64,000 nt of DNA from a bacterium (GTDB lineage: Bacteria; SZUA-182; DTGQ01; JBLIRR01): positions 59,710 through 123,709 of the forward strand of contig JBLIRR010000009.1 of assembly GCA_049472395.1 (NCBI GenBank), read 5' to 3'. Each line of letters opens with the position of its first letter. Positions within the stretch are counted from its first letter, which is position 1. A program made the position numbers and the translations under genes. Shown here piece after piece: positions 1-64,000 of this stretch. The notes under the pieces are model-generated. The model did no database searches and was not told the origin of the DNA. It saw nothing but the letters and a program-made list of their open reading frames with translations.

Positions 1-44
1 ATGGGAAAAAAGAACTATAAAGAATCGAGAGAACTAGTGCAAAA

Positions 45-610: not shown

Positions 611-676
611 ACTTAAAAAAATTCTTTTAAGAATAGGAAAGAGCTCATAAAATGAAGAAGAAATATGCCGTGGCGC

Positions 677-10200: not shown

Positions 10201-11377
10201 TGTTATGTGTGCATGAAATCCCAAGTATTCTGCACATTTCATCCGACATTGTGAATGAATTATCTTTAAGGTTCCATTCCCAACTTCCCACATGCGCCAA
10301 CTGTTGCGCTCGCTTGAGACTTGCCTCGTTTTCTTGCAGCGACTTTTCAGTCTGTTCGTGTTTCAAGATATTACGCTGAAGTTGCTCGTTGATTGCTCTT
10401 AATTCTTTGGTTCGTTTTGTGACCAATGCCTCAAGATGATCCCTGTTGCGACGTAAATTTCTTGACATTAAATTAAACGATTGGGCTAACTCATTCAATT
10501 CTCGGCTTTGAAGTCCGGAAACTTCCTCGCCAAGATGTGTGCCCTCCTCTGCAATTTGGATTGCCTTATCATGGATCCTTCTGATCGGTGCACACACACA
10601 CTGCCTTACTGTTACATATTGCAGAATAAAAAAGCCTAAAATGATGAGTAATAAAATGCCGGAAAGCTTTAAAGAAAAACAATCAGCCATAGCGTATGCT
10701 GTATAAAGGGGAATGCGTATGGAAACGGCGGACACCGATTCTCCCAACCTACGATTGAATCCCCTTTGGATTCCAAATATATCAATAAGCCCTTGAGGTG
10801 CTATTTCCGGTGTGCTGTGACATTTCAGGCACGGCTCCGATATGGAAAAAGACCTCTTGAGAATTGTAAGATATGGCTCTCCATTAAATTTACGGATTGT
10901 TGAACGGCTCATAAGTTCCGGATTGATATTAAGCTCATTAATGAATGTCCTTTCATAGTCGTCCGCTTCATTTTTAGGACTTCGAGCATTGATAGCACAA
11001 TTTTTAAAATATAAATTGTCGGAATTTCTCGCTTTAAAATAGTCGTCAATCCTCCTGTTGGCATAGGTAGATGACATCCAGGTCGGATTAAAATATTCAA
11101 CTGGCACGTATTTTTCACCTATTGTAAAGGCATTCGGTTTTAGATCATGAAAAAAATAATCATGAACTGCTAATGTTCTGTCGAGGATAATTTCAGCCTT
11201 TGCTTGGGCCTCTGTAAGAGCCTGCGATCGCATGTGATAATTGACGAGTAAAACGATGGATATCGAAGATAGTGTAAATATAAAGGCTGTGATGATAGTA
11301 AGATATGTGGTAATCCTTAAAGGGAAAATTCTTTTTTTATATTCATTGATAATTTTTAAAAGTCTAGTAAATACCAT
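7262..11377 (-). CDS. Hybrid sensor histidine kinase: TM - CxxCH heme-type sensor domain - TM - about 5 PAS domains - HisKA - HATPase - C-terminal receiver
   Basis: CLKCH motif in the periplasmic-loop region (DUF3365-like sensor). Repeated PAS signatures ending ...DITERK. H-box FLANVSHEIRTPLNPI. G-box GTGLGLTICKKL. Receiver LIAEDNISNQ...LILMDVQMPVLDG. Confidence 0.85.
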   Translation of the reverse strand: MVFTRLLKIINEYKKRIFPLRITTYLTIITAFIFTLSSISIVLLVNYHMRSQALTEAQAKAEIILDRTLAVHDYFFHDLKPNAFTIGEKYVPVEYFNPTWMSSTYANRRIDDYFKARNSDNLYFKNCAINARSPKNEADDYERTFINELNINPELMSRSTIRKFNGEPYLTILKRSFSISEPCLKCHSTPEIAPQGLIDIFGIQRGFNRRLGESVSAVSIRIPLYTAYAMADCFSLKLSGILLLIILGFFILQYVTVRQCVCAPIRRIHDKAIQIAEEGTHLGEEVSGLQSRELNELAQSFNLMSRNLRRNRDHLEALVTKRTKELRAINEQLQRNILKHEQTEKSLQENEASLKRAQQLAHVGSWEWNLKDNSFTMSDEMCRILGISCTHNTFDTFQSLIDTLLHPDDREMVIHAALGVTKKFTGTPLTYRIIRPSGETRWIIATEPQIRHLGNDGTPEIMIGAIQDITEKKIAEDLLQQSEYNLRTIFDTVHAGIVMIDANTHKIINANPKALEMCGVPKGKLLGSVCHNYICPDEKVRCPITDLGETVNKSECTLLTASGEKIPILKTVTKVELEGQKCLIENFIDITDRKEWEKKITESEQKFRAIFDNATDGILIADSGTKKFDMGNNTICQMLGYTLEEIKTLGIMDIHPEEALPYIIEQFEKQAKGELKLATDIAVKRKDGGVFYADVNSTLVSFSGGKYLLGVFRDITERRRAENELRQQRNEAQNYLDIAGVMLVNIDADQRVTLINKNGCEILGYKKEEILNKNWFDHFLPEKRRDKVKTVFNKLIAGNIEPAEYFENPVLTKNGEERMIRWHYSVLRDETGEITAILSSGEDITDRKKVEEELKRVHSAVETSLNAIFIADLEGTITYANPSAARMWGFNDYEEMYEKNVLEYWTEESRGKAKEIINIITNEGSYSGEGLVGRKKDGTELLVSLKASLLTDDNGKPIGMTGCFSDITATKEYEEQLKQAKEKAEESDCLKSAFLANVSHEIRTPLNPILGYTELMLSDELSEDHREYLHTIKKSVNLLLFILNDILDLSKIEAGQLEIELIPCSLKSILHNIDSHCSMLISQEGKDISLRQSCPDTISRFIMGDPTRIQQIMHNLMSNAIKFTESGSIEYGVSLKNKKTLEFYVSDTGVGIPKDKQKEIFRPFHQADVSHTRKHGGTGLGLTICKKLSELMGGKIRLTSRTGADHGTTFYFTLPYTPTEIEEPHNASHTKIPIETKTPYTILIAEDNISNQQITKKVLEKSGYNVVVSNDGQEAISLYKSNPSIDLILMDVQMPVLDGLDATKAIRTMEAEAKKGDRISIIALTAYAMKGDRERCLEAGMDDYVSKPIRAPELLAAIENKLGRSREKNEE

Positions 11378-22333: not shown

Positions 22334-24514
22334 ATGAAAAAATGTATTATTATCGCAATTATTATAAGCATAAGTCTTTTTTACACCTCATGTATGCAGG
22401 AGAATGAGGAGGTGCCAGAAGGTGTGCGATATGACATCACTGAACCGACAATCCATGGCAGAAGGCTAGCAGCGCTCTCCTCGGTCGATGATTGTGATGA
22501 GCTGCTTGCACATTTAAAGGAGGCTGCAATAGAGGATATGGAAGCAAAGATTGATGCCTATGCATCGAGTATCGAGGAGTGCGGCGGGTGCTGTTATATG
22601 TATGTGGGCTATGCAGAGGATATGGATGGAGGGACTATTGCTACCTCAGCCAATGACACCACAAGAAATGAAGAAGGAGGGGCTTCTGAGTATTCTACAA
22701 CGAACAATCAGGTCGTTGGCGTTGATGAAGCTGATTTTATTAAGAATGATGGTTCATATATATATATTCTTGCTGATAATAAATTTCAAATAATCAAAGC
22801 ATGGCCTCCTGGTGAGGCGGAAACGGTGAGTAAGGTTGATATTGAGGGAATCCCCAAAAAACTCTTTATTTCCTCAGACAGGGCGTTAGTCTATTCAAGT
22901 GGCGACTATATCGGGATACAGAATCAGTATCCTGAGTATTATAATTACTGGTATTCCGATAATGAGTGTACCTACGGGTATGATTGCGATTTTACGGGCG
23001 ATAACCGTCGACTGAAAATAACCGTGTATGATATTTCAGATCGATCGAATCCTTCTCTTCTCAGAGAAATTCGGTTCTCAGGTTCCTTTATTAATGCTCG
23101 ACGGATAGGAAAGGCTGTGCATACAGTAATTATTTCCCCGACATTCTCATCTCCTGATATCAAATACTGGCCGGACATCCTGCAAGAGTGTTGGTACAAT
23201 TATGAGGACACACCAACACTGCAAGAGCTTCTCTCAGCATTTGAGGAGCTTAAGCAGACAAACCGTGAAATTATTGACAATTCAACTATTATTGATTGGA
23301 TTCCCAGCATAGAGGATGTGCGTTATGAGGAGAGTGGGATAGTATCTGACAGCAGTCTTATTCAAGATTGCAGTAATTTCTATGAAACCAATCGAGGGGA
23401 GCGCCAGTCTTTTCTTACCGTGTTCTCACTTGATATTGATCAGATGGGGGAGCTTCATCAAGTAAGTATTGTGGGACGTCCGGGAGCTGCCTATGCTTCT
23501 TCCTCTGCCCTTTACATAGCTGCCAGACAGCAAGTCAATTCTGCCTATGGCTGGTTCTACGAGGATAGGGCAGGCATAGAGGAGGCGAGTATGGTTCATA
23601 AATTTAGGCTGCAAGAAAATCCCGCACGATGTGAGTATGCGGGTAGTGGCGTTGTGAAAGGCAGGGTCCTTAATCAGTTTTCTATGGATGAATATGATGA
23701 TCATTTCCGTATTGCGACAACAACCGGCCATCTTCCCAGTTCGAATGTTCACAGCACATTAACTATTCTCAAGGAAGACTCAGAGGAACTGAGAATTGTC
23801 GGACAGGTTGATAATATTGCTCCTTCCGAAGATATTAGATCAGTCAGGTTCGATGATTCCAGGGCGTTTATTGTGACCTTTAAAAAAACTGATCCGCTTT
23901 TTGCCTTCAATTTGATCGACCCTACAGCGCCGAGAATTGAGGGGGAGCTGAAAATCCCCGGATATTCCACCTATATGCATCTTATGGATGAGAACCATTT
24001 GCTCACTATAGGGTATGACGCAGATGATGTAGGAGACTTTGCCTGGTTTCAGGGCATTATGTTGCAGATATTCGATGTGTCTGATATGTCCGACCCTCAA
24101 CAGGTTCACGAGGAAGTGATCGGCACACGGGGAAGCACCTCAGAGGCAGCGACAAACCACCTTGCCTTTAATTATTTTTCTCCCAAGGACCTTCTCGCGA
24201 TCCCCATAACAATCTGTGAGGGAGAAGAGGGGGGCAGTTCCTATGGCACAGAGATGACCTTCAGCGGACTGCTCGTCTATAATGTAACCGTGGAAAATGG
24301 CTTTGCAGAGCCGGGTCGTGTCTCACATGTGGAGCCGGGGACTGAAGAGAGCGCTCATGCATGTTATAATTGGTGGACAAACTCACATTCGATCGTTCAA
24401 CGGAGTATTTTCATGGATGATTATGTGTATTCCGTGGCACTTGATGAGATTAGAATTCAGAGCCTGGATAACCTGGGAAATGATATATGTGTCATAGACC
24501 TCACAGAAGAATAA
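22334..24514 (+). CDS. Secreted lipoprotein with beta-propeller domain (Beta_propel-type), paralog of the C-terminal region of 58490..62476
   Basis: Lipobox LFYTSC. Good RBS GGAGAGG. Collinear similarity to the large protein, e.g. RIEGELKIPGYSTYMHLMDENHLLTIGYD / IFDVSDMSDPQQV versus RIEGELEIPGWSTHIEPRGERLIALGVDD / LFDVSDMKDPQLM. Confidence 0.7.
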   Translation: MKKCIIIAIIISISLFYTSCMQENEEVPEGVRYDITEPTIHGRRLAALSSVDDCDELLAHLKEAAIEDMEAKIDAYASSIEECGGCCYMYVGYAEDMDGGTIATSANDTTRNEEGGASEYSTTNNQVVGVDEADFIKNDGSYIYILADNKFQIIKAWPPGEAETVSKVDIEGIPKKLFISSDRALVYSSGDYIGIQNQYPEYYNYWYSDNECTYGYDCDFTGDNRRLKITVYDISDRSNPSLLREIRFSGSFINARRIGKAVHTVIISPTFSSPDIKYWPDILQECWYNYEDTPTLQELLSAFEELKQTNREIIDNSTIIDWIPSIEDVRYEESGIVSDSSLIQDCSNFYETNRGERQSFLTVFSLDIDQMGELHQVSIVGRPGAAYASSSALYIAARQQVNSAYGWFYEDRAGIEEASMVHKFRLQENPARCEYAGSGVVKGRVLNQFSMDEYDDHFRIATTTGHLPSSNVHSTLTILKEDSEELRIVGQVDNIAPSEDIRSVRFDDSRAFIVTFKKTDPLFAFNLIDPTAPRIEGELKIPGYSTYMHLMDENHLLTIGYDADDVGDFAWFQGIMLQIFDVSDMSDPQQVHEEVIGTRGSTSEAATNHLAFNYFSPKDLLAIPITICEGEEGGSSYGTEMTFSGLLVYNVTVENGFAEPGRVSHVEPGTEESAHACYNWWTNSHSIVQRSIFMDDYVYSVALDEIRIQSLDNLGNDICVIDLTEE

Positions 24515-24754: not shown

Positions 24755-25630
24755 ATGAAGAAATTAGAGCCCATGATTATTATGGGACGGGACTTTAGCG
24801 TTGAGGAACTCAAGCTTATCAAGGAGATGGTGGAGTTATACCCTAAATTGAGCAGGACGGAATTGGCAAAAACCATATGCGAGAACATCTTCTGGGAAGC
24901 GCCTAATGGGATAATAAAACATAATAGTTGTCTTAAAGCGCTTGAGAAACTGGAAGAACAGGGACATATTGAACTGCCGGTGCTGCGATCACCAAAATCC
25001 AGAAAGCAAACAAAAATATGCATTACTCCGAGGAGCGATCCTGCTGAGATGATGGAGGGGCGCATAGATCAATGGGGAAGTATTACTATAGAAAAAACAA
25101 ATACAAAAAATGTTGGATTATGGAATGAATATATCGAGAGATATCACTACCTGGGATATAAAATCCCCTTTGGTCTGCATCAAAAATATTTTGTGACATT
25201 AGGGGGACGAGTGGTTGCGTGTATGTTATATACTTCCTCAGCTTGGGCGTTGGAGTGCAGAGATAAATGGATCGGATGGTCGGCAAGGCAGAAAGAAAAA
25301 AACCTCACCCGTATTGCCAATATGAGCCGCTTTCTTATATTGCCCTGGGTGAGGCTGAAGAATCTCGCCAGTTGCACCATCTCTTTATCGTCAAAGCTTA
25401 TAGAGGGGGATTGGGAGGAAAGATTTGGGTATAAGCCTGTTTTACTTGAGAGTTTTGTTGATGCTACCCTCTATAAAGGGACTTGTTACCGGGCGGCAAA
25501 CTGGATTTATCTGGGGCAGAGCAAAGGCCGTGGCAGGCAAGATCGCTATAATAAAGGTTTGTCCACTATTAAAGACGTATTTGTGTATCCACTCTGTGAT
25601 GACTTTAGAGAAGAGTTATACAAGATATGA
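24755..25630 (+). CDS. Conserved hypothetical protein, tentatively DUF4338-like
   Basis: Motifs YHYLGY and NMSRFLILPWV that I associate with DUF4338-type proteins. A possible sigma-70 promoter upstream has TTGACA-18 bp-GATAAT at about 24706-24735. Confidence 0.45.
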   Translation: MKKLEPMIIMGRDFSVEELKLIKEMVELYPKLSRTELAKTICENIFWEAPNGIIKHNSCLKALEKLEEQGHIELPVLRSPKSRKQTKICITPRSDPAEMMEGRIDQWGSITIEKTNTKNVGLWNEYIERYHYLGYKIPFGLHQKYFVTLGGRVVACMLYTSSAWALECRDKWIGWSARQKEKNLTRIANMSRFLILPWVRLKNLASCTISLSSKLIEGDWEERFGYKPVLLESFVDATLYKGTCYRAANWIYLGQSKGRGRQDRYNKGLSTIKDVFVYPLCDDFREELYKI

Positions 25631-30001: not shown

Positions 30002-31111
30002 TCACCTCCTTTCATTGTGAGACTCTGCACGGTAAAGGCATAAAGGATTATTAAAGATTGAGCCACTATAACAGTATGCGGTAGACTTGCAGCCTCCCCT
30101 GCATACATAATTATATTCACAGCTGCTGCACTCTCCTTTCAGCATGCTGGTATCAAAATCGCGGTTATACGAGAAATTCCCCGGCTTATTCCAGATATAA
30201 GCGAGTGATTCCCTGCGGATATTCCCTTCAATGAATTCCGGGAGGGTGGGCATGGAAAGACACCCTTTAATGTCTCCGTTTGCTTCTATACCAAGGGCCT
30301 GTATCCCCGCAAAACACCCTGTAAAGAAGGGGAGATGTCGTTGCCGTGATACACTGCTTCGAAGCATTTCTTCATTCCGGCTAAAATAACCGATATTGTC
30401 AGCCACATCAACTTGTATTCGCCTATTGTTACGGACCTTGAGAATAAATTGTTCAATAGCAGGGAGGTCTTCCGGTTGTACCACAAAGTTCCGGTGTTCG
30501 CACAGATTCCCCCGTGGTACGCCAATTTGAAGCTGCCATATCTCTACTCCTTTATCACATGCAATATGGAAGAGCTCATCGAGTTCCATTATATTATCTT
30601 TGGTAATAGTCGTGACAACAGCTGAGGAGACCTCATTTTGGCGAAGCAGGGATAAGGCATTCATCACCCGCTCATATGATCCTGGCTTTCGCCGGATTTT
30701 TTCATGAGTGTCCTTGAGCCCGTCCAGACTAATAGCGACATTGGCGAGGTGTGCTTTTTTGATGCGGTCGACGAGCGCTTGGTCCATGAGGTAGCCATTT
30801 GAGATGGCATTTACCTTAACATTATAGCGATTAAGGCAAAGGGCGAGATCATCCCAGTCTTCCCGCAAGAACGGCTCTCCACCTAAGAGTGTCAGAAGCT
30901 CGCAGCCCATCTGTCCTAATTGATGACAGAAATCGAGGGCTTCTTCATGGTTCAGTTCTTCTCCTCGTCTCTCACCCGCTTCAGAACCACAGTGTGCACA
31001 ATTCATATTGCAGCGAAGGGTTAACTCCCACACCACACTGCGTGGATAATATTTTATCTTATCCAGGTAATACCTCGGATTTTCCTTCATGAGCTTCAGT
31101 ATATAACGCAT
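30002..31111 (-). CDS. Radical SAM enzyme with C-terminal SPASM domain
   Basis: CNMNCAHC (CxxxCxxC) within WELTLRCNMNCAHCGSE. SPASM cysteines GCFAG...GDIKGCLS...CSSCEYNYVCRGGCKS. Confidence 0.8.
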   Translation of the reverse strand: MRYILKLMKENPRYYLDKIKYYPRSVVWELTLRCNMNCAHCGSEAGERRGEELNHEEALDFCHQLGQMGCELLTLLGGEPFLREDWDDLALCLNRYNVKVNAISNGYLMDQALVDRIKKAHLANVAISLDGLKDTHEKIRRKPGSYERVMNALSLLRQNEVSSAVVTTITKDNIMELDELFHIACDKGVEIWQLQIGVPRGNLCEHRNFVVQPEDLPAIEQFILKVRNNRRIQVDVADNIGYFSRNEEMLRSSVSRQRHLPFFTGCFAGIQALGIEANGDIKGCLSMPTLPEFIEGNIRRESLAYIWNKPGNFSYNRDFDTSMLKGECSSCEYNYVCRGGCKSTAYCYSGSIFNNPLCLYRAESHNERR

Positions 31112-32942
31112 GTGATATCTCCTGATAAATTTGTTCAGCCTCTGGCAGGAAACAGGGATTTAATCCCTGAACCCTGAAAAGCCAACAGCCTCCCCTGCAT
31201 CGGGAAAGGTGTGAACAGCGTTTACATTCATCGGGTAGAGATGATGGAACCTTACCTCGAAAGTCAGCAAAACCTCTCGCCCAGATGTTTTTCAAAGAGG
31301 AGGTAAGAAAATTCCCTTCTTCTCGCCCTACACTCCCCGGAACAGCACAACCAGTCACATCTCCTTCTGAGTTTAAACAGAAGGTATTCCAGCCAGAGCC
31401 ACATGAAAATGGCTGAGCGCGCACAAGAGATTCCAGCGGGCCCAGATAACCGAAAGCCTCGCTAAGTTCAACCATAAATCCCCTCCGCCGGGCCTCGAGG
31501 ACAAATCGGAATGCCTGTTTAACCAGCTCAGGTGTATTTCTCTCTGGTGCTCCATTGCGATACAGAAGCGGCTGAAGCTGTAATCTTCGTGCTCCGCAAC
31601 GAAACACCTCTTCTGTGAGCTGTGAAAGTTCACGGATATTCTCTTCTAATAGAATAGTGGTGACACTGATAGAGGGAACGCCGACATCATGGAAAAATTC
31701 AATGGATCGAATTCCTCGCTCATACGCATTATTGCTTTTGCGAATCCGATCTTGTGCGTCTCTGTATCCATCGAGAGTAATTGCGACAGAATCGAAGTGT
31801 GCCTGCTCCAATGCGGCAAGATGATCCTCAGTTGCCTGCCCATTGGTTGTTAAGCCGACTTTTATCCCTTTCTGGTGGGCATAATGGGTGATATCAAATA
31901 TGTCCCGGCGAAGCAGAGGCTCGCCCCCGATAATAGAGAGAAACTCACACCCCAGGGAAGCAAGCTCATCTATTGCTTTGAGAACCTGACGTGTAGTTAA
32001 TTCTTTGGGATTGGCCTGCTTTGATGTAGTATCGCAATGACTGCAGTTGAATTGACACCTGTCCGTGCTTAACCATTGAACAAACTGCGGCATTTTCGAT
32101 TGGGCAGGGAAGTCCTGAAATGATGGCGCTTCTGTGTTCTGCCTGCTCGAGCCTTTTTCTTGCCTGCTATGCTCCGGGCCCTTCTTTTCAGGGCTGTAAT
32201 GCTTAAAGGCGCTCAGGAGGTCTAATGGAAAAGGAAAAACAATAGTAGAGCCTTTTTGAACAGACATATCTCTCATGGTTTGAAGGTAACGCAATTGTAA
32301 GCTCTGGGGATTATCACTAAGAATTTTGCCCGCTTTTACTAAAGTCTGGGCAGCCTGGTATTCCCCTTCCGCATCAATGATCCTTGCTCTTCTCTCTCGT
32401 TCAGTTTCAGCCTGTTTCGCCATAACACGTTTCATCTCTTCAGGCAGGGTTATTTCTTTTATCTCGACAATGGGGATACTGATTCCCCAATCACTGGTAT
32501 GATCACTTATCACCTGCTGCAGTTCCGTATTAATTTTTTCTTGCTGGCATAGCAAATCATCCAGATTCACCTGGCCAAGTATACTGCGCAACGTTGTCTG
32601 AGCGATAAGAAAGGTTGATTGGTAAATATTTTGAATCCTTATGATTGCCCGGGCTGGATCGGTAATTTGGAAATAGACCACCGCATCCACAGTGACCGGT
32701 ACATTGTCCCGTGTCATGATCTCTTGGCGAGGCACATCTATGGAGACGAGCCTGAGATCGACTTTTCTGACTCTATCAACGAGCGGGATGAGGAAGATTA
32801 ATCCGGGCCCCTTGCTGCTGTGCAATTTCCCGAGGCGAAACACGACTACCCGTTCATATTCTTTCAATATCTTGAATGTTGAGGTGAAAAGAGCGCCAGC
32901 AGCGATGATTAATAGAAGAATTTTTATAAGTCCAAGATACAT
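31059..32942 (-). CDS. Fusion protein: N-terminal SPFH/band-7 (stomatin/prohibitin-like) domain + radical SAM/SPASM domain
   Basis: N-terminal TM plus an SPFH signature (YERVVVFRLGKL...VSIDVPRQEIMTRDNVPVTVDAVVYFQITDP...AETERERRARII). Then WLSTDRCQFNCSHCD (CxxxCxxC) and SPASM-type C-terminal cysteines (CGSGWNTFCL...GCAV...CKRCSHLSRCRGGCW). Confidence 0.7.
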   Translation of the reverse strand: MYLGLIKILLLIIAAGALFTSTFKILKEYERVVVFRLGKLHSSKGPGLIFLIPLVDRVRKVDLRLVSIDVPRQEIMTRDNVPVTVDAVVYFQITDPARAIIRIQNIYQSTFLIAQTTLRSILGQVNLDDLLCQQEKINTELQQVISDHTSDWGISIPIVEIKEITLPEEMKRVMAKQAETERERRARIIDAEGEYQAAQTLVKAGKILSDNPQSLQLRYLQTMRDMSVQKGSTIVFPFPLDLLSAFKHYSPEKKGPEHSRQEKGSSRQNTEAPSFQDFPAQSKMPQFVQWLSTDRCQFNCSHCDTTSKQANPKELTTRQVLKAIDELASLGCEFLSIIGGEPLLRRDIFDITHYAHQKGIKVGLTTNGQATEDHLAALEQAHFDSVAITLDGYRDAQDRIRKSNNAYERGIRSIEFFHDVGVPSISVTTILLEENIRELSQLTEEVFRCGARRLQLQPLLYRNGAPERNTPELVKQAFRFVLEARRRGFMVELSEAFGYLGPLESLVRAQPFSCGSGWNTFCLNSEGDVTGCAVPGSVGREEGNFLTSSLKNIWARGFADFRGKVPSSLPDECKRCSHLSRCRGGCWLFRVQGLNPCFLPEAEQIYQEISHALYTEAHEGKSEVLPG

Positions 32943-53345: not shown

Positions 53346-53930
53346 TTATTTGAATTCACCGAACTCTTTCTCTATTTCTTCATCAAGCTCTTCCTGGGCC
53401 TTTTGCGCCTGGAATTTTTGCCATAATGATTTTTCATTTTTGTAGCTGGTCATCATTGAATTTTTCACAGCTTGGGCTGCCATCTCAGAATCAAGGGTAA
53501 CAAGCACATATATCTCTCCGCTTGGAGATATCCATACATCCTTTTGCCTTGAACCTGTAATGACCTGGCTTGCAACCTGTTTTGAAACATTTGTGGATAC
53601 CTTGTCCACGGTTTCGTCATCGCCAATTCCCGTATTTTCTGTGAAATTCTTGACCATATTCTTTACTTTTACGTTCATCATTCTGGCTAATTCATCCCGT
53701 GCATTTGCTAAAGCCATGGTCCTGGTGTGCTGCACGCCTGCTTTGCTTTTTTGTGATGAACCAACCGCAGCTAATCCCTGGTCCGCCGATGCCCCAAGAA
53801 CCCATTGTGGGGCATTGGCAAATTCGTTCGCCAAATCTTTATCCTGTATCTTTGTGCCCTTTTTACGCCCGCAACCGGACACGGTGATAAAGAGCATTAA
53901 AATTATCGTGCACCATGCAATTTTTTTCAT
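53346..53930 (-). CDS. LPP20/FlgP-like lipoprotein
   Basis: Lipobox VSGC. ...QHTRTMALANARDELARMMNVKV resembles the LPP20 fold signature. Confidence 0.45.
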   Translation of the reverse strand: MKKIAWCTIILMLFITVSGCGRKKGTKIQDKDLANEFANAPQWVLGASADQGLAAVGSSQKSKAGVQHTRTMALANARDELARMMNVKVKNMVKNFTENTGIGDDETVDKVSTNVSKQVASQVITGSRQKDVWISPSGEIYVLVTLDSEMAAQAVKNSMMTSYKNEKSLWQKFQAQKAQEELDEEIEKEFGEFK

Positions 53931-53966
53931 ATACTGTCTCCTTTCATGTGGTTAAAATTTTGGTCG

Positions 53967-55442
53967 TTATGTTGACTCATGAAAATAAATCACTTTCGGT
54001 TTTTCATTTTTGAATTGGGGCATGGCCATTCCGATATCAGCATTAATATAGGTTGGATCACATATGATATAGCGGATGCCATTGGCGAGGATACTGTCAC
54101 CTTCTAGAGGGTCTGTAAACTTGACTGCCGTTGCCAGATGATTCGGATAATGAAGACCGATGACGGAAAGCCCGGTAAGTTTTCTCACTAAAAATGCAAA
54201 AAGAATGGATCGGTCTTCGCAATCTGAGAAAGGATAATAGAGAGTTTCTTCAGAAAGCATATACTTCTCTCTTCCGAATTGGGCATCGTCAGTCTTATAT
54301 TCAAAGGCTGTCTGCACAAAGTGGAGTAAGAAATTGACAGCCTCTCCCTCAGATTTCCCTCCAATATACGGTCTTAATCCATTGAGTAACGATTCTGTTG
54401 CTTCATCCGAGACCGGGGCTTGAAAATATACCTCAAAATTTGTCTGGGGGTAAAACCTAAAGAATTCAATAAGTTCTGCATTAAAGGTGACAGGAATCTC
54501 ATAACGCTTCCCCTGATAGTCAAATGAGAGGTTTTTTGTACTGGGTATATGCGTTATGTTCGGAGAAAATTGAATGCTCGTATCCATCACGCGATCAGCT
54601 TCAGGATAACTTCCTTTATAGGTATATAACGCTCCAAGCTGCTTTTTGGTTTCATCAAATGAAATGGCATAATATTTTTTTCCATCCAATTTGATAAAAG
54701 GAACCGCGTAGAGTGTAGTGTGTGAAGGCAGCAATAGATTTACTTTATTTTCATTATAACCTATACGCGCCTCATAACCTGATTTTGAAAGGATGAACCA
54801 GGCTAAAAGCGTCGTTTCATTGGCGTTTTCTTTACCATAGAGTGCTTCACCCATTTTATATATAAGAAAATAGTAGCCCCAGTCATTGAGCTGGAGGTCG
54901 TTCTTATATGTGTGGATAGCATGGACAGTATTTTCATAGGACGCTTTGCTCAAAGTTTCCCAGAAAGAGCTGATATTATTCTTATCTATACTCCCTTTTA
55001 TTGTGAGCTTCATGGCAGGATCGTAAGGGATATCAAGTGATTGTCCGAAAAAAGTTATCGTCACAGACCTTCCCTCTATCTTCTGCCCAACAGGCTCTTT
55101 CTTCGGAGTCGGTTTTGGAGGAGCCTGTGCGGGTATTTTTTCTATTTTCGTGCCCTGAAAAGATTTTTCTTTATCTGCCGCTTTCTGAGAGGGAGCACGA
55201 GGGACTCTTACAGGTTTTGGTTTCTCATATATTTTAGCACCCGCAAAGAGGGTGAATTCTTTCCACTGTCTTTTAAGGTACCTGGTAAATTCCTTGTCCC
55301 GTTTATCTTTGAATTCCTGAAAATCACCAAGTTCCTGTTTTTTCCACTTCTCAAATTCACTTTCTGCACCTGTGTGATGTATGAGAACAAATGAAAATAG
55401 AATAAAAATCAAGACACAAGAATTTTTCCATTTTATCATCAC
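53967..55442 (-). CDS. Secreted protein with possible transglutaminase-like/papain-fold Cys-His-Asp domain
   Basis: Signal peptide. C-terminal ...YPFSDCEDRSILFAFLVRK...HYPNHLATAV...YIICDPT is arranged like the C/H/D triad of transglutaminase-like cysteine peptidases. Low certainty. Confidence 0.35.
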   Translation of the reverse strand: MMIKWKNSCVLIFILFSFVLIHHTGAESEFEKWKKQELGDFQEFKDKRDKEFTRYLKRQWKEFTLFAGAKIYEKPKPVRVPRAPSQKAADKEKSFQGTKIEKIPAQAPPKPTPKKEPVGQKIEGRSVTITFFGQSLDIPYDPAMKLTIKGSIDKNNISSFWETLSKASYENTVHAIHTYKNDLQLNDWGYYFLIYKMGEALYGKENANETTLLAWFILSKSGYEARIGYNENKVNLLLPSHTTLYAVPFIKLDGKKYYAISFDETKKQLGALYTYKGSYPEADRVMDTSIQFSPNITHIPSTKNLSFDYQGKRYEIPVTFNAELIEFFRFYPQTNFEVYFQAPVSDEATESLLNGLRPYIGGKSEGEAVNFLLHFVQTAFEYKTDDAQFGREKYMLSEETLYYPFSDCEDRSILFAFLVRKLTGLSVIGLHYPNHLATAVKFTDPLEGDSILANGIRYIICDPTYINADIGMAMPQFKNEKPKVIYFHEST

Positions 55443-55451
55443 AAGATACCT

Positions 55452-56444
55452 TTATTCTGGATCTTTAAAATAGTCGAGAATCCTCACGGTAAGTACCTTA
55501 GAAACTTTTTTTATGGCATTATGTGCCGCTTCGGAATAAGTGAGATGTGAACCTCTCTTATTCTCCTCAATCTTACCAACTATTTCATTGGTATGAGTAT
55601 CCATAATAGCAACTGATACAGTGGCACGCGCATACTTCCAATCAGGATTTTTAATGTCCACCTGTTCGAGAGTGACGGAGCCTTTAAGAGTGATATTGGA
55701 ATTGTCCCTTTCCGTGGTTATGATATACCCCTCCTGACCCAACTGTTCTGAAATCAAGCTCGCCACTGTCTTTGTATAGTTATCCTCGGCAAAATCGAGG
55801 TATATTCTCATACTCGCCTTTATACTGTGTATTTTTTTGTAAATATCCCGTATTTCATAATCAGTGATGGACGCATCCTCAAAGCCAAGAACTCTCAATC
55901 TGCTTGCGATGACCTGCCTTTCAAGCCAAAGCTTATTAATGTGCAGGAGCGATCGTAACTTCGAGAAGGGGCTAGGCATACTCTCAAGAGAATTAAGAGT
56001 TATTTCTATTTTATCATCCATACTGTCTATTTTTTCCTGCCACTCCCTCCTCGCTTTTTGTCTGTTAAGAACCGCAAGAGCATAATAGACATTTTGTTTC
56101 TCGTCATACCATGTTTTCCCTATCGTGACCCCTTTAAGCTCAACGGCCGAGAGTACCCCGATTTTTTGTTCAGCATCCCTCGTGACAGTCTCTTCTCCGG
56201 ATTCACTTGTGGCTGATCTTACTATACTAAGTACGCTGCTCATTACGGTGGATTCAAAAATGGATGACATCTCTGCCTTTGCCTGACGCCGTGCCTCTTG
56301 CTCTGATTGGCCGATTCCTGTTGCGGTAAGGTATTTTGAGGCTGAATACTCTGGGGTGATATCCGGTTTTTTTGATGCTGCAAATGCCGGGAGTGCGCTC
56401 AATAAAAACATCAGTAAAAGGAGTTTTTTCATTGTGCCTCTCAT
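55452..56444 (-). CDS. LPP20/FlgP-like lipoprotein with C-terminal extension
   Basis: Signal peptide ...FAAS. YLTATGIGQSEQEARRQAKAEM matches the LPP20-type motif. Confidence 0.5.
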   Translation of the reverse strand: MRGTMKKLLLLMFLLSALPAFAASKKPDITPEYSASKYLTATGIGQSEQEARRQAKAEMSSIFESTVMSSVLSIVRSATSESGEETVTRDAEQKIGVLSAVELKGVTIGKTWYDEKQNVYYALAVLNRQKARREWQEKIDSMDDKIEITLNSLESMPSPFSKLRSLLHINKLWLERQVIASRLRVLGFEDASITDYEIRDIYKKIHSIKASMRIYLDFAEDNYTKTVASLISEQLGQEGYIITTERDNSNITLKGSVTLEQVDIKNPDWKYARATVSVAIMDTHTNEIVGKIEENKRGSHLTYSEAAHNAIKKVSKVLTVRILDYFKDPE

Positions 56445-57040
56445 AGAGAAAAGCGAGGACGTTTAATGAATTTCTTTATTTTCTTCTCACCTATCCATGC
56501 TTTTCTATTCGTTTCAACATCAATAAGCTCGAGATTAACCTGATAGAACATGACCGCTTTGCCCCCAATCTTATCCTGTATGGTGCTTATGGTCCCTTTT
56601 AACATAAAGTCAGCGCCTATTTCCTCGCCAGCTGATTTCGCCGTGTCTTCAGATGAATGAATAGCTTGATCTTTACGCTCATCCCGTATCTCTTCTCTTT
56701 CCTCTTTTGCCGCGACAAAGTCCACCTCGCCTGAGTTTATTAATGCCCGTTCAAGGTCTTTGACAAAGGTTTGCACATTAATATGCTCATGACTGCGATT
56801 CTTGATCGTTCCCACAATAACAACGGGTAATGTCCCCCCATGCCCCTTTTTAAAATTATTAAGCCATGGACGTTGGAGAGAGTCACCGATCATCTCTTCA
56901 GATACGAGACGGGAATCGGTGTCATTCCACCGTCCGCTCAGATCAACTGTTTCGGTGGTGTCAATTCTCTTTACGGATGTCGCGCATCCAATGGCGAGAA
57001 ACAGGGTAAAAACAAGCAGTAATTTTAATAAATTCTTCAT
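56441..57040 (-). CDS. LpoB/FlgO-like (COG3417-type) lipoprotein
   Basis: Lipobox LAIGC. Central GTIKNRSHEHINVQTF...LERALINSG pattern as in LpoB-family lipoproteins. Confidence 0.5.
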   Translation of the reverse strand: MKNLLKLLLVFTLFLAIGCATSVKRIDTTETVDLSGRWNDTDSRLVSEEMIGDSLQRPWLNNFKKGHGGTLPVVIVGTIKNRSHEHINVQTFVKDLERALINSGEVDFVAAKEEREEIRDERKDQAIHSSEDTAKSAGEEIGADFMLKGTISTIQDKIGGKAVMFYQVNLELIDVETNRKAWIGEKKIKKFIKRPRFSL

Positions 57041-57195: not shown

Positions 57196-58209
57196 TTATA
57201 TAAGATCAGCAAGAAAGTCATAATTTCTTGTTTTATTAAATTTTTCAAGCTCCTCGATAAGTAATTCATCACCAGGGCGGATAAAGGAGCCCCCCTCAAC
57301 GGCTAATCCTTCATCAAATAGCCCAATAAATATGGAAATATTTTTTCCCTTGCCATGATACGCAGCCCGTGCCACATCAATAAGGAATGGCGGCATATAG
57401 TGGCCCTCAATAAATTGTTCTTCAAGCACTGTTCCTTTGGCTGCATAGGTAGGATTAAGATGCATATTGATGCGAATATTATATTTATCGGCTATGGTGC
57501 TCAAATAGTCAATTCCCTGTTCAATATCCTTCCGTGCCTTTTCGTCACTCATGTCTGATACGGGTTTTTGCATGAAATAGCATTTAAGCCTGTATTTGTA
57601 AGGCGCGATCTTTTTTATAAAGTTTTCAAAAAGCTCAAAGCTTAAACCCTTCTGAAATATCTCATTACGGATCTTTTCATTAAAAGCTTCAAAGCCTATA
57701 GCCAGCTCAAGTTCCGTTGGCGTGTCCCCCTCCTTCAATGCTCGCGACAGAAATTCCAATTCCTCCACTTCCACATATTCAGGTCGTGTTTCCATGCACA
57801 AGGTGTGCAGATTCGGGAAGGAGAGATTTATCTTCGCCATAAGGTACATGAGTGCAGTTGAAGAAAAGGTTACTTCATCAAGCACTGAGCCATTATTGCT
57901 TAGAATTATTTTTTGAATGGATTCTTTGTGCTCCAGTACTTTCGGATCATTGAAAATATGGTCAACCTGAGCGATGAGGGCCTTGTAGCTTACATGCTCC
58001 TTTGACATCTTGGAGGGAAGGTTACAGCCGATACATCGTGACCACCGACATGCCTGGGTGTAAAATACTGTAAAGAGAATAAGCCCTTCATCTGAGTTCT
58101 GGAACCACATTTGGGCAGGCTTATTTTCATTATGCGATTCATTAAAGGTGTATTTCTTAAATCCTTTTTCAGATCCACTTTGAATTTGTTTTTCCGCGAT
58201 CTTTTTCAT
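57196..58209 (-). CDS. Putative Fe-S (radical-SAM-like) enzyme with non-canonical Cx4Cx2C motif
   Basis: TQACRWSRCIGCN near the N-terminus. About 337 aa with a TIM-barrel-like length. Family not recognised with confidence. Confidence 0.35.
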   Translation of the reverse strand: MKKIAEKQIQSGSEKGFKKYTFNESHNENKPAQMWFQNSDEGLILFTVFYTQACRWSRCIGCNLPSKMSKEHVSYKALIAQVDHIFNDPKVLEHKESIQKIILSNNGSVLDEVTFSSTALMYLMAKINLSFPNLHTLCMETRPEYVEVEELEFLSRALKEGDTPTELELAIGFEAFNEKIRNEIFQKGLSFELFENFIKKIAPYKYRLKCYFMQKPVSDMSDEKARKDIEQGIDYLSTIADKYNIRINMHLNPTYAAKGTVLEEQFIEGHYMPPFLIDVARAAYHGKGKNISIFIGLFDEGLAVEGGSFIRPGDELLIEELEKFNKTRNYDFLADLI

Positions 58210-58489
58210 AAATCATAATTATATAGAGGCGATTTTTTTTTTCAAGAAAGATGATAATTTTTTCGCAATTTTCATTTTGGATTATAGATTATATAAGAAA
58301 TGCCGGCAATTTTTCAGGCATTTTTTTTGCATAAAATTTTTTTTAGTACTTAGAAAATGAAAGAATAGTATAATTTCGTTGTCTTTTCATAAAAGATTAA
58401 AGTAACAAATAGCGCATGAGCGCATGACTTTTTTGTTAAAATTAATAAATAAAATGTATATATACATTTCAAAAAAAGGGGCGGAGAGA

Positions 58490-61400
58490 ATGATTAAAAG
58501 AATCAAAAAAATAATAGCATCTATATTTATTTTAAGTTGTATTTTTTTTATTTTTTCAGGAGCATTGCATGCACAATTCTTTGGATTTGATCAATTTATT
58601 ACAAATACGACAAATACTAATATATTTACTTCTACATCATGGCCTTTATTCCAGACTGCGACCACTCAACCTGTTAATTCGTTGTTGTTCATTAATTCCA
58701 TTTTTCCCCAGTCTCCCTTCCCGCAGAATACTAGCCTGAGTTCTTTATTTCCTCAAACTAATCAGCTCTTCTCTAACTGGCCAGTGACTTCCATAACTCC
58801 CATAACCTTCCCTACACTCTCAACCTCGCTCCTTCCTTCATGGTTCTCTCCTTTTGACCGAGGGGGGTGGAACTGGCCACAAGATATAGCCCAAATTGAG
58901 ATTGAGCAGGTGATCAATGAATCATTCGATGAGCAATCGATTTATTTGACTCAGGGAAATTTGATCAGGATTGAGCTTACGGCCAATCCCAGCACCGGCT
59001 ATCAATGGCAAGGAGAGTGGGATAAATCAAAGCTGTCTCTCCATGACCATTTCAATATAATCCCGTCGTCTGTTGGATTGTTGGGTGCAAGTGGGAAGGA
59101 GGTATGGATATTTAAAGCTCTCGCTTTGGGGAAAACAGAAATTTCCTTTGAGTATAAGCGACCATGGAATTTTTATGCTGCTCCTTTAAAGGAGCTCGTG
59201 TTTACTATCATTATCCATGCTGAAGGAAGTATGAATGATCTTGTGGGCAAGGACTCTGACTTTGTGTCCGCGGGCACCGAGAGCCCTGTGTATGGTGCAT
59301 ATGGAAGCGCAATGTACAGTGCAAACGCGACCGCTGCTCCGGAAGCAGCTTTAAGAGATGACCAGGCCCAGATTGCCAGGGAGATTGAAGAGGCTGATAT
59401 AATAAAGATTGAGGGAACGTATCTTTATTTACTGAATAGGTACCGTGGCTTGATAATTTGCAATATTGCAAATCCCCGCAAGCCTTCGATGGAAGGGAGA
59501 ACCCCAATTCCCTCAGGTGATCCCAAGGATATGTATATTGATGGCACTCGTGCCTACATCATAGTCAATTCAGTGAATAGTGAGCTTTCCTATACAACGG
59601 ATCTTTTTGATAATGAAAGCGCAAGTGATCCTTTCATTCCCCCTTCACAACAATCAAGCAGCATTGTAATAGTTAATATATCGAATAAATCGAATCCTCA
59701 CGTAATAACCACCATTGACGTGGAAGGCACTGTAACAGACTCCCGCATTGTCGGAAACATTTTATATGTGGTTTCCTCCGAATACCCTTTATACTATTAT
59801 GCTCAACCACTACCTGTTGCAGTCTTAGAGGGAACTACAACCAGCACGGCACCTGTTGATATTGCTGTTCCTTTGAATGTTGGGATCGGCGAGGCGGTAG
59901 CTATTGAAGTTGTCGCCGGTGAAGGAGTAGCGGTTGGATCTATGGATTCTGAAATGGATGAGAGCATCCCGGAGAGAACCGAACACACTATCCATGTGAC
60001 CTCAATTGATATCTCAAGTGCCGCGAATACGCGAGTTGTCGATCGTCTTGATTTTATCGGCTATACCAACTATATTCATGTCACGGACAAGGCAATATTT
60101 ATCGAATCATACAATAATTCTTACCGTGACGCGAGCACCACTATCACCTTTGTAGACATTTCAGATCATTACGGTGCCATTGAGGAGAGGGGTTCAGTCC
60201 AGATTCCAGGTAGTGTAAAAGATAAATTCAAGATGGATTACTATGATGGCTATTTAAGGGTATGTACCTATAAATGGGACAATGAGGGCGGGGTGAGCAT
60301 TCTCTCTATAATAGATGTGCGCAATCCTGATCGCTTAAATGTAGTAAGTGAGGTGCCAGTGGGACGAGGTGAACAACTCTTCGCCACACGATTCGACGGG
60401 GAGCGTGGCTACCTTGTAACCTTTGAACGGATTGATCCCCTCTGGGTAATTGATCTGAGCAACCCACGTGAGCCTCGAATCGAAGGAGAACTGGAGATAC
60501 CAGGATGGTCAACACACATCGAACCTCGGGGTGAGCGGCTCATTGCGTTGGGAGTAGATGATACAATCGGCCGCAAGGTGTCAGTGTCCCTTTTTGATGT
60601 AAGTGATATGAAGGACCCCCAGCTCATGAGGCGCGTATCATTCGGTGAGGGCAATGGGTGGAGCTCCTCCACAGCCTATGGGGATGTGAAGGCATTAACC
60701 GTGATAGATGATTCGGGATTGATTCTTCTCCCCTATTCTACATCAGTTACTACAGGCGGGAGGTATACCCAGGATCATAGATTGCAGCTTATTGACTTCT
60801 CATATGATGATATAGAGGCGCGCGGCTGGGTGAGCCAGAAGGGCAGTGTCCAGAGAAGCCGCAATATTGCTAACTATCTCTTTTCCGTGTCTCTCGATGA
60901 ACTTCAGGTTATTGATGCAACCAATCGGGATAAACCAGAGATCATCAGTTCACTCCCCTTGGCGCGCAATAGTATAGATTTTGTAGCCCTTAACAATGGC
61001 TATGGCGTGCATTTGACAACCGACGATTACAGCAGCTATTCCCTAAGCGCCGTCCCGCTCTCTGATCCGGAAGACGGAACGGTGATCAGCAGAATTGACC
61101 TTGATGCTCAGAGCACACCCTCTCTTATCGCAAATGGAAACATGGTCTATGTCATAATGACAGAGTATAACACCTACTATCCTTATGGTGTAGAGCCGGC
61201 CATCCCCGTCGTAGATATAGCTGTAAACACAATGGAGGTATCCACGGAGCCGGCGGAACCTTCACGACAGGCAGGTATCACAACGACAGAACCGATGGTC
61301 TTTGCAGCAAATCCGGTCGTCAATTCAACCGAGCCGTCCGTCGGTTCAACCTCAGCGAGTGCTGTGTCCCCATCAGTGGATATAGAAGCTATTGCACCGC

Positions 61401-62476
61401 CGGAGAAGTATTATCCTGTTGCCATGACAACAGTGCAAATTTATGATTTTAGCACTATTACAAGGCCTCGAAAACGAGGCTTTTTAGAGGTCCCGGGGAC
61501 CTATTACGGTCTAAGGGCACGAGGGGAAGCTCTTCCTGTGCATTCATCATCGTATAGCAATTATAATATTATCCAGATTGCCAGTGATGTGCTTGTATTT
61601 AATAAAGCCGAGCCATACTATTATGGGGATAGATACTATATCGCTGCTGAAGGCCCCACTGATGATTCGGCAGATATGGAGGAATTTAGAGGATTGTTGG
61701 TTGTCGATCTTTCAAATCCCGACAAACCGGAATTGGCAGCCCAGGTCCCATATGGTGACATTAATCCCAGGTCACTTTTTGCTGAGGATGAAATACTCTA
61801 TTACTCCTACAGTCGCGACATTAAAGAAGAGGATCAGAAGCGGCCCCAAAGCAAGTATTATTTGGCGAGAGTAAACCTGGCTGATCCTTCTCATCCTTAC
61901 GAGTTTCACCATATTAATATACCAGGATACTGTGTTGGCCTGAATAATTCAGGGGAGTTTGCCTATACAATCAACATTGAGTGGTCGGATGAGGAAGAAG
62001 ATTCCTGGTATCAGGATTATTCATTTAATGTGGTAAAGATTGTGGATGATACAGCTTACTTGTTCGATACGATCCCACTGGACGGCCAGTGGTATAATAC
62101 GATCATTGACAGCGGGTATGCGTACCTTTCCGGATCAGGAGGATATGTGCGGTATTATGACAGTATGCAGTATGGCGCCATCCGCGCTCCATACTATGGC
62201 GGGTATGGTGAATTTATAATTATTGATCTTTCAAATCCGGAAAACCTCGTTGAATATAAACATTCACCCAGCGGAGGGAGCTTTGATATATTTGCTGCGA
62301 GAAACCATTCTCTCTTTGCCCGGGTAAATGGGGGACTCGCCTGCTACGACGTTGCTGATCCGGAGCACCCAAACCTTGAGGAATCAAGACAGGGCTATTC
62401 TTCTACCATTGTATTTTTAAACAATAAAGCATATCTCCCCCTTGGCTATTATGGCCTATGGGTGAAAGGTTTATAA
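58490..62476 (+). CDS. Very large secreted protein: signal peptide - chagasin-like (I42) peptidase-inhibitor domain - extended beta-propeller region (paralog of 22334..24514)
   Basis: Start at ATG 58490 (RBS GGGGCGGAGAG), preferred over the ORF-track start 58424. Signal peptide ...GALHAQ. All three chagasin loops are present: NPSTGYQW, LGASGKE, KRPWN. Downstream region is collinear with the 726-aa beta-propeller protein. Confidence 0.75.
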   Translation: MIKRIKKIIASIFILSCIFFIFSGALHAQFFGFDQFITNTTNTNIFTSTSWPLFQTATTQPVNSLLFINSIFPQSPFPQNTSLSSLFPQTNQLFSNWPVTSITPITFPTLSTSLLPSWFSPFDRGGWNWPQDIAQIEIEQVINESFDEQSIYLTQGNLIRIELTANPSTGYQWQGEWDKSKLSLHDHFNIIPSSVGLLGASGKEVWIFKALALGKTEISFEYKRPWNFYAAPLKELVFTIIIHAEGSMNDLVGKDSDFVSAGTESPVYGAYGSAMYSANATAAPEAALRDDQAQIAREIEEADIIKIEGTYLYLLNRYRGLIICNIANPRKPSMEGRTPIPSGDPKDMYIDGTRAYIIVNSVNSELSYTTDLFDNESASDPFIPPSQQSSSIVIVNISNKSNPHVITTIDVEGTVTDSRIVGNILYVVSSEYPLYYYAQPLPVAVLEGTTTSTAPVDIAVPLNVGIGEAVAIEVVAGEGVAVGSMDSEMDESIPERTEHTIHVTSIDISSAANTRVVDRLDFIGYTNYIHVTDKAIFIESYNNSYRDASTTITFVDISDHYGAIEERGSVQIPGSVKDKFKMDYYDGYLRVCTYKWDNEGGVSILSIIDVRNPDRLNVVSEVPVGRGEQLFATRFDGERGYLVTFERIDPLWVIDLSNPREPRIEGELEIPGWSTHIEPRGERLIALGVDDTIGRKVSVSLFDVSDMKDPQLMRRVSFGEGNGWSSSTAYGDVKALTVIDDSGLILLPYSTSVTTGGRYTQDHRLQLIDFSYDDIEARGWVSQKGSVQRSRNIANYLFSVSLDELQVIDATNRDKPEIISSLPLARNSIDFVALNNGYGVHLTTDDYSSYSLSAVPLSDPEDGTVISRIDLDAQSTPSLIANGNMVYVIMTEYNTYYPYGVEPAIPVVDIAVNTMEVSTEPAEPSRQAGITTTEPMVFAANPVVNSTEPSVGSTSASAVSPSVDIEAIAPPEKYYPVAMTTVQIYDFSTITRPRKRGFLEVPGTYYGLRARGEALPVHSSSYSNYNIIQIASDVLVFNKAEPYYYGDRYYIAAEGPTDDSADMEEFRGLLVVDLSNPDKPELAAQVPYGDINPRSLFAEDEILYYSYSRDIKEEDQKRPQSKYYLARVNLADPSHPYEFHHINIPGYCVGLNNSGEFAYTINIEWSDEEEDSWYQDYSFNVVKIVDDTAYLFDTIPLDGQWYNTIIDSGYAYLSGSGGYVRYYDSMQYGAIRAPYYGGYGEFIIIDLSNPENLVEYKHSPSGGSFDIFAARNHSLFARVNGGLACYDVADPEHPNLEESRQGYSSTIVFLNNKAYLPLGYYGLWVKGL

Positions 62477-63059: not shown

Positions 63060-64000
63060 ATGTATAAGGTTTTTATCTCCAGTACTTATCTCGATAATAT
63101 ACAAAGACGGAAGGTTGTTCAGGATGCCATCACTGCGGCGAAAATGGTATGGCATGGTATGGAAATCTTTACTGCCAGCACACGGCCTACGGTAGAGGAA
63201 TGTCGCCGATGTGCAAAGGAGGCGGATCTGCTGGTGGGGATCATTGCCTGGCGTTATGGATGGGTGCCCGATGGTGAAGAAAGGTCCATAACCGAAATGG
63301 AATACGATGCTGCCAGGGATAAGTTGATGTTTCAACTGGACCCGAAGCTTCCGGTTAATCCTGATCAGGATTTTGATCCGGGAGAAGATCGATGGGATAA
63401 ACAGAAAAAGCTGGAGGCCTTTAAAAAACGTTTTGCCAAAGAGCAGATGCCTGCCTATTTCAGGGAAGAGACCTTGGGTCAGAAAGTCCTGGATGCTTTA
63501 AACAAGTGGAGGGAAGGTCGTGAGAAACAAACTGAAAAGAAGGGATGGAAGCGATCATCAAGGCCAAGCCAAGGCCCTTCCCGCAGCAAAAAAGAAAGAG
63601 AGGCTGAAGAGATAGCCTCATACTGCAAAAAAGTGGAATCCCTCCATGTGAATCTGCCGGTCGCCGGATTTGCCGAACATATTAAAGTTCCCATCGATAT
63701 TGAGGATCTCTACGTGCCCTTAAGGGCTATGATGGATTTAAGAGGCATTGCCGGAGAGATCTTTCATGATGCAGATCATGCTGAAAAGTGTCTCAGGGCC
63801 TGCAAAGGAGGCTGTGAGATTGCCCTTACCGACGCCTTTAAGCAGGCAGAATCACGCAAGCAGAAAGGGCTCGTCATTCTTGGTGATCCCGGATCAGGGA
63901 AAACCACCCACTTAAAATGTTTACTCCTGTGGTGCCTGCGAAAAGGGCCGCAGACCCTCGGCCTTCCTCCTGAAATGATCCCTGTGTTTTTACCTTTGAG
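63060..64000 (+). CDS. DUF4062-like N-terminal domain + P-loop (NACHT/STAND-type) NTPase, 3'-truncated by the window end (not in the ORF track because it has no stop)
   Basis: ATG at 63060 preceded by AAGGAGG (63039-63045). Open frame to 64000. MYKVFISSTYLDNIQRRKVV...ADLLVGIIAWRYGWVP resembles DUF4062. Walker A ILGDPGSGKTTHL at the end of the window. Confidence 0.6.
   Translation, partial: MYKVFISSTYLDNIQRRKVVQDAITAAKMVWHGMEIFTASTRPTVEECRRCAKEADLLVGIIAWRYGWVPDGEERSITEMEYDAARDKLMFQLDPKLPVNPDQDFDPGEDRWDKQKKLEAFKKRFAKEQMPAYFREETLGQKVLDALNKWREGREKQTEKKGWKRSSRPSQGPSRSKKEREAEEIASYCKKVESLHVNLPVAGFAEHIKVPIDIEDLYVPLRAMMDLRGIAGEIFHDADHAEKCLRACKGGCEIALTDAFKQAESRKQKGLVILGDPGSGKTTHLKCLLLWCLRKGPQTLGLPPEMIPVFLPL

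Follow-up and report, generated by a model that had tools for sequence, protein, structure and literature searches.

Chagasin-like inhibitors of cysteine peptidases (ICPs; MEROPS family I42) insert three loops, L2, L4 and L6, as a wedge in the active-site groove of papain-like peptidases, and these inhibitors, including the one from Pseudomonas aeruginosa, are thought to target endogenous and/or host peptidases (PMC2845656). Those I42 proteins that have been characterised stand alone and are about 110-130 residues long, and chagasin, EhICP2 (amoebiasin-2) and the P. aeruginosa ICP share an immunoglobulin (Ig)-like beta-sandwich fold. A second group of proteins relevant here is Pfam family PF09826 (Beta_propel), described as 'uncharacterized secreted protein with C-terminal beta-propeller domain'; LVIVD repeats, which also occur in the protein considered here, have been noted in cell-surface proteins of archaea and bacteria (PMC2447325). 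We found no description in the literature of an architecture that fuses an I42/chagasin domain to a beta-propeller. Such a fusion is encoded in a 64,000-nucleotide stretch of bacterial DNA (contig JBLIRR010000009.1 of assembly GCA_049472395.1, positions 59,710 to 123,709 of the forward strand), hereafter the window, whose own numbering is used throughout. The gene at 58490..62476 (+) specifies a 1328-residue product in which one I42 domain precedes two beta-propeller regions. Architecturally this fusion is a new variant, but it does not constitute a novel type of system, and its main value is the functional hint that it offers for the PF09826 family.

The inhibitor domain and its fusion partner

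Residues 133-252 form a genuine chagasin/ICP-type domain, as judged by the profile match, the sequence similarity to solved structures and the predicted fold. The Pfam hidden Markov model (HMM) Inhibitor_I42 (PF09394) matched residues 153-239 (nucleotides 58946-59206) with E 4.8e-19 and 68.9 bits, against a gathering score of 27.2, over profile positions 2-90 of 91, and the score rose to 72.2 bits when the N-terminal part was searched alone. Among PDB sequences, phmmer recovered EhICP2 (E 5.4e-12), the P. aeruginosa ICP (5.5e-8) and chagasin (2.7e-5). An AlphaFold2 model of residues 133-252, built on an alignment of 12 propeller-fused I42 domains, has eight strands (predicted local distance difference test, pLDDT, 86.4; predicted template modelling score, pTM, 0.77), and the best 12 Foldseek matches of this model in the PDB were all ICP-family structures, with template modelling (TM) scores of 0.62-0.85 (EhICP2 at E 1e-12 and TM 0.77/0.84; chagasin 2oul at TM 0.76/0.85). 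An earlier reading of this DNA (the original prediction) had proposed a chagasin-like domain joined to a propeller and had suggested profile searches for both; Beta_propel, like Inhibitor_I42, scored above its gathering threshold, and the inhibitor assignment is upheld by profile and predicted structure alike.

The three wedge loops can be located by alignment to solved chagasin-family inhibitors. The L2 motif NPSTGY aligns with NPSTGY of EhICP2 and with NPTTGF of chagasin and the P. aeruginosa ICP, an NPTTG-type L2 motif being cited for this family (PMC2845656), and the L6 motif R224-P-W226 aligns with RPW in all three. The original prediction had placed all three signature loops here. Two of them are intact, whereas the G-x-GG-like loop L4 reads G199-A-S-G202, with Ser for the third-position Gly of the GxGG motif; the aligned segments are LLGAGGTE (GAGG) in chagasin and LVGSGGE (GSGG) in the P. 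aeruginosa ICP. EhICP2 likewise departs from GxGG at this site, where it reads GFPS. Columns without variation among the 12 fused I42 domains lie mainly within the three loops (N166, T169, G170, W173, G199, R224 and W226), and G202 is nearly invariant. Taken by itself, the domain is an ordinary member of a well-studied family and is unsurprising, with the P. aeruginosa ICP as a fellow bacterial member. It differs from the characterised inhibitors in being one module of a 1328-residue protein, with a 100-residue low-complexity tail before it and two propellers after it.

The protein lies within an uninterrupted open reading frame (ORF) at 58424..62476 (+). We set aside the longer start at 58424 and preferred that at 58490, which the original prediction had also used, because of the purine-rich, ribosome-binding-like stretch AAGGGGCGGAG, the signal peptide MIKRIKKIIASIFILSCIFFIFSGALHA and the match to a database protein: the 1328-residue product is identical to NCBI protein P0001, which is annotated merely as 'MAG: beta-propeller domain-containing protein [bacterium]'. 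Read by eye, the signal peptide is of the classical type (MIKRIKK, a hydrophobic core, then ALHA followed by Q), and signal peptidase I would cleave after ALHA. The protein is thus predicted to be exported across the inner membrane, with the periplasm as possible a destination as the cell surface named in the original prediction. Residues 30-132 are uncharged in character, with four charged residues out of 103, and rich in T, F, S, P, N and W; I42 was the sole Pfam match in residues 1-297, with none in this tail. Similar aromatic low-complexity regions occur in relatives P0002 and P0013. The tail is probably disordered; it may anchor the protein, direct its secretion or serve as a linker.

The body of the protein is dominated by propellers. 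Beta_propel matched residues 298-811 at E 7e-89 and 299 bits (cutoff 22.4), covering profile positions 10-493 of 495, and LVIVD repeats (PF08309) were detected at E 1.5e-11 and 43.9 bits (cutoff 20.2). Residues ~812-1328 gave a weak Beta_propel match (E 4e-8) together with LVIVD, and the boundary between the two propellers (~811/812) is approximate. An AlphaFold2 model of residues 253-1328, based on 116 homologues, is all-beta (pLDDT 81.6, pTM 0.81), with low-confidence inserts at ~265-297, 365-384, 435-487, 906-968 and 1218-1237, of which ~906-968 is a disordered insert within the second propeller region. The HMM match, the export signal, the all-beta propeller model and the LVIVD repeats are all features that the protein shares with PF09826 proteins, but compared with this family at large it belongs to a subclass of ~900-1400 residues with a second, divergent propeller, a region that is conserved across the clade of 900-1150 residues. 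Fold searches with the body matched generic propellers only, and therefore no function can be transferred from them. Eight charged residues are invariant in propeller 1 (E301, D303, R419, D556, R590, R634, D655 and R789), a hint of a conserved site there.

Table 1. Features of the inhibitor-propeller gene, and the second propeller gene of the window
Feature	Position	Strand	Basis or remark
Shine-Dalgarno-like purine-rich stretch AAGGGGCGGAG	58476..58486	+	just 5' of ATG 58490; sequence reading
Signal peptide, residues 1-29, MIKRIKKIIASIFILSCIFFIFSGALHA, next residue Q	58490..58576	+	read from translation
Low-complexity N-terminal tail, residues 30-132	58577..58885	+	composition
Ig-like inhibitor domain of the chagasin family (MEROPS I42), residues 133-252	58886..59245	+	Pfam, PDB sequence matches, AlphaFold2, Foldseek
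L2 loop motif NPSTGY, residues 166-171	58985..59002	+	alignment to solved chagasin-family inhibitors
L4 loop LLGASGKE, residues 197-204	59078..59101	+	alignment to solved chagasin-family inhibitors
L6 loop motif RPW, residues 224-226	59159..59167	+	alignment to solved chagasin-family inhibitors
Linker, residues 253-297, mostly predicted disordered, with a family-conserved FVSAG segment	59246..59380	+	AlphaFold2 pLDDT <50 at model residues 13-45; family consensus
First beta-propeller region, PF09826, residues 298-811	59381..60922	+	Pfam; stretch collinear to the 726-aa product
Second, divergent LVIVD-type propeller region, residues 812-1328 and stop codon	60923..62476	+	weak Beta_propel, LVIVD, AlphaFold2
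726-aa single-propeller PF09826 protein, lipoprotein-like N-terminus (…LFYTSC)	22334..24514	+	Pfam E 3e-137

Inhibitor modules among the propeller relatives

A profile search with the body found 674 relatives at E <= 1e-5, and when the best 120 of these, mostly ~900-1250 residues long, were typed for I42, nine carried the domain. A scan of species-level genomes, for which an alignment served as the query (a single-protein query gave no relatives), yielded 228 relatives, among them proteins of Desulfobacterales, Myxococcota/Polyangia, Planctomycetota, Hydrogenedentota and the archaeal Thermoplasmata and Bathyarchaeia. The double-propeller subclass of ~900-1400 residues is present in Desulfobacterales, Myxococcota, Planctomycetota, Hydrogenedentota and some archaea. 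With the I42 HMM, four of 80 species-level genome loci were positive: L005 and L008 (Desulfatirhabdium butyrativorans metagenome-assembled genomes), L009 (Desulfococcaceae HSG8) and L011 (Desulfobacteraceae bin_101). Loci L002 and L003 and the window were positive as well. The domain was always fused, and no unfused I42 gene was found by this HMM within 10 kb of a propeller gene in the genome loci. These counts bear out the view in the original prediction that inhibitor-propeller fusions are uncommon. The complete genome of Desulfonema magnum 4be13 has a relative that carries no I42, and many I42-less relatives are lipoproteins with short N-termini.

The fused proteins fall into two groups. 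In group A, the window protein has the order signal peptide, low-complexity tail, I42 and body, and P0002 and P0003 have a signal peptide, a low-complexity region, BsuPI, I42 and body. Group B (P0004-9, P0023, L005, L008 and L011) consists of a signal peptide, one or two I42 domains, Kazal, calcium-binding-like repeats with an unknown domain, and body; Kazal is present in P0006-9, P0023, L005, L008 and L011 and absent in P0004 and P0005, and the tandem I42 arrangement ahead of the body occurs in P0023 and L011. A further protein, P0032, has a single propeller with I42 at its C-terminus. Neither Kazal (PF00050/PF07648) nor BsuPI (PF12690) gave a Pfam match at E <= 1 in the window protein. The interval at approximately residues 135-450 of P0004-P0010 and P0185 holds dockerin/EF-hand-like calcium-binding repeats (D-x-N/D-x-D-G) between Kazal and the propeller, as well as a Cys-rich beta domain to which Pfam assigns no family. 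Two of these group B relatives, P0010 and P0185, have real signal peptides and no I42, and modules have therefore been gained and lost within the clade.

It seems that I42 entered this protein family more than once. Group A (window, P0002 and P0003) has I42 domains that are 48-53% identical among themselves, compared with 24-29% to those of group B. They are 35-44% identical to the free-standing tandem-I42 proteins P0080, P0057 and P0090, whereas the nearest relatives of the group B domains are different free proteins, P0046 and P0047. In a neighbour-joining tree computed from 800 columns of the body, groups A and B form distinct clades, and proteins lacking I42 lie between the two as well as inside B. 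Independent captures are favoured because of these I42 identities, the body tree and the differing positions of the domain, which together suggest at least two captures in the double-propeller clade, and three when P0032 is counted.

Inhibitor domains in multi-domain exported proteins are not confined to this family. The top of an I42 profile search was dominated by proteins with 2-10 tandem copies of the domain, and a list so composed gives no direct census of fusions. Homologues of BsuPI are often cell-surface proteins that are secreted and built of several domains (PMC3901451). Tandem-I42, Kazal-containing and BsuPI-containing secreted proteins thus resemble the window protein in carrying inhibitor domains within a multi-domain exported chain, but unlike the tandem arrays the window protein sets a single I42 domain on a very large non-inhibitor body.

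The window contains a second PF09826 gene, as the original prediction had recognised (Table 1). That prediction regarded about 1000 residues of the large protein as collinear with the 726-aa product, and took the pair as signs of a surface-protein family under expansion. The conserved blocks on which the comparison drew, RIEGELEIPGWST (residues 663-675) and FDVSDMKDPQ (702-711), do exist and align with the 726-aa protein. However, BLASTP aligned only residues 299-428 (27% identity) and 564-807 (29%) of the large protein, so that the shared portion is about 510 residues at 25-29% identity; the last ~510 residues (~812-1328) are the second propeller region and have no counterpart in the 726-aa protein. 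The nearest relatives of the latter are the single-propeller proteins P0035, P0036, P0033 and P0032 (27-29% identity), within the class P0032-P0036, and its identity to the double-propeller clade is merely 22-25%. Because of the low identity and the different subclasses, one with a single propeller and the other with two, the pair is no evidence for a recent expansion, and the two genes are best read from these comparisons as ancient, architecturally different members of the family. Directly 3' of the 726-aa gene lies a 291-aa ORF (24755..25630, +) of the Druantia protein DruA family (PF14236, E 8e-36), which appears solitary, with no rest of a Druantia system nearby.

What the inhibitor module may do

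We consider it probable, from sequence and structural modelling, that the window protein acts outside the cytoplasm and that its I42 module blocks papain-like cysteine peptidases by a chagasin wedge while being carried on a double-propeller scaffold. The product would be a Sec-exported, monocistronic, acidic modular protein comprising, in order, the signal peptide, an uncharged tail of ~100 residues, one I42 domain, a flexible linker of ~45 residues and a two-propeller body of ~1030 residues. Its I42 module would work as the solved chagasin-family inhibitors do, with NPSTGY, GASG and RPW as the L2, L4 and L6 wedge loops. The double propeller is the ancestral and widespread part of the protein, probably a scaffold or a platform for interactions that is associated with the envelope and that the inhibitor module would protect or arm, and the likely targets would be extracytoplasmic peptidases, possibly foreign ones. 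The analysis shows the domain identities, the fold, the motifs, the export signal and how the modular architecture is distributed; inhibitory activity, target class, location in the periplasm or at the surface, and protective role are what we infer. The presence of three unrelated inhibitor families (I42, Kazal and BsuPI) ahead of one body argues that inhibition itself was selected, and not a neutral Ig spacer.

Several observations weigh against this interpretation. Most members of the propeller clade carry no inhibitor module of any kind, and the inhibitor is therefore accessory. The L4 motif is degenerate, and the loop was modelled at low confidence (~63). No cysteine peptidase gene was found beside this gene, among the 19 window ORFs scanned, or next to its homologues at three loci, and these three loci have unrelated neighbours. 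As for the body, a sequence-profile search of the PDB returned nothing significant, and literature searches on PF09826 and COG4880 found nothing relevant to its function. Moreover, the neighbour-joining tree from which the captures were read has no bootstrap support.

Some of these points would be accommodated if the I42 domain were a mere Ig-like spacer or adhesion module, and the whole a propeller-based adhesin, enzyme or envelope scaffold. The degenerate L4 motif and the lack of a cognate peptidase in the ORFs and loci just mentioned are in keeping with such a role, as are the PKD or HYDIN-like Ig modules that precede the propeller in P0022 and P0187, and a review of the BsuPI family doubts that such Ig-like 'inhibitors' are primarily inhibitors (PMC3901451). 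Nevertheless, we think this explanation unlikely. The invariant residues of the fused domains are concentrated in the three inhibitory loops, the nearest solved relatives are inhibitor structures, and Kazal and BsuPI ahead of the same body are hard to square with mere spacers.

Alternatively, the I42 domain could regulate one of the organism's own papain-like peptidases, exported and encoded at a different genomic site, with the propeller localising the peptidase or handing it over; the protein would then serve self-regulation and not defence against foreign enzymes. Chagasin-like ICPs of several protozoa have been proposed to regulate endogenous peptidases (PMC2845656), and our analysis covered 64 kb of a contig of 199,786 bp, which leaves room for such an enzyme. 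We hold this to be rather less probable again, since neither the scanned window ORFs nor the three homologous loci offer a linked peptidase, and the giant Peptidase_C13 protein near one homologue is not conserved at the other loci. Least probable of all is that the body is itself a bait for peptidases, which the N-terminal inhibitors then neutralise, the whole protein being a multi-inhibitor trap comparable in function to bacterial alpha-2-macroglobulin or to envelope defence of the ecotin type: although three unrelated inhibitor families precede one body through apparently independent captures, and the invariant charged residues of propeller 1 suggest a binding or catalytic site, inhibitor modules are absent from over 90% of the closest relatives of the body, the other genome loci have no unfused I42 gene within 10 kb of the propeller gene, and beyond the generic propeller fold the body has no structural likeness to known protease-binding proteins.

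The I42, Kazal and BsuPI modules that a few lineages carry in front of one and the same body, with signs of independent capture, provide a 'guilt by fusion' clue that the PF09826 double-propeller family may operate where extracytoplasmic proteases act. Should the inhibitors target foreign peptidases, the protein would join the few known means by which the bacterial envelope is defended against proteolysis. A bolder proposal, which we offer as speculation and consider rather doubtful, is that the double-propeller body is an envelope platform facing foreign proteases, on which I42, Kazal and BsuPI have been captured repeatedly, and each time independently, in Desulfobacterales-type lineages to give a modular anti-proteolysis 'armour'. 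In such an arrangement cysteine peptidases would be countered by I42 and serine peptidases by Kazal and BsuPI; the foes might be, for example, the cathepsins with which protist grazers digest, or peptidases that competing bacteria secrete. If true, this would amount to a previously undescribed protein type and would give the first functional handle on the large PF09826 family.

Gene neighbourhood and other loci in the window

The inhibitor-propeller gene stands alone, with a divergent gene upstream and a 580-nucleotide gap downstream. Together with the unrelated neighbours at the three homologous loci, these flanks rule out a conserved operon. Rfam searches of the whole window gave no matches, and promoter and terminator scans were not above shuffled expectation. 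The divergent gene (57196..58209, -) is a 337-aa ORF that gave no Pfam match at E <= 1e-3; its C-x4-C-x2-C cluster (CRWSRCIGC) is reminiscent of Fe-S/radical-SAM-like enzymes. Farther upstream is a cluster of lipoprotein genes (53346..57040, -) with an LpoB-like protein (56441-57040) and LPP20-domain proteins (55452-56444 and 53346-53930), along with large ORFs without Pfam matches (53967-55442 and 51990-53345). This cluster looks like an envelope-associated module. Beyond the gap, an ORF that starts with MYKVFISSTYLD runs off the window end (63060..64000, +). It has a DUF4062 domain (E 1.9e-18), after which come a Walker A motif (GDPGSGKTT) and a weak nSTAND3 match, and it looks like a STAND-type NTPase, a kind often linked to defence.

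The giant protein mentioned above is encoded at one Desulfococcaceae HSG8 locus (L001, JAUCGG010000074.1, positions 1..3557), where 1919 residues were called. It combines NHL repeats with Peptidase_C13, a legumain-type cysteine peptidase domain, and lies ~6.5 kb upstream of an I42-Kazal-propeller homologue; the other loci have no such gene.

Elsewhere in the window, a 627-aa fusion protein (31059..32942, -) has SPFH/Band 7 at residues 25-194 and a radical SAM and SPASM enzyme at 292-576, an unusual pairing. A 1371-aa hybrid histidine kinase (7262..11377, -) contains a Tll0287-like periplasmic sensor, HAMP, multiple PAS domains, HisKA/HATPase and a receiver, and further signalling proteins are encoded at 18707-20680, 27124-29061 and 17319-18698.

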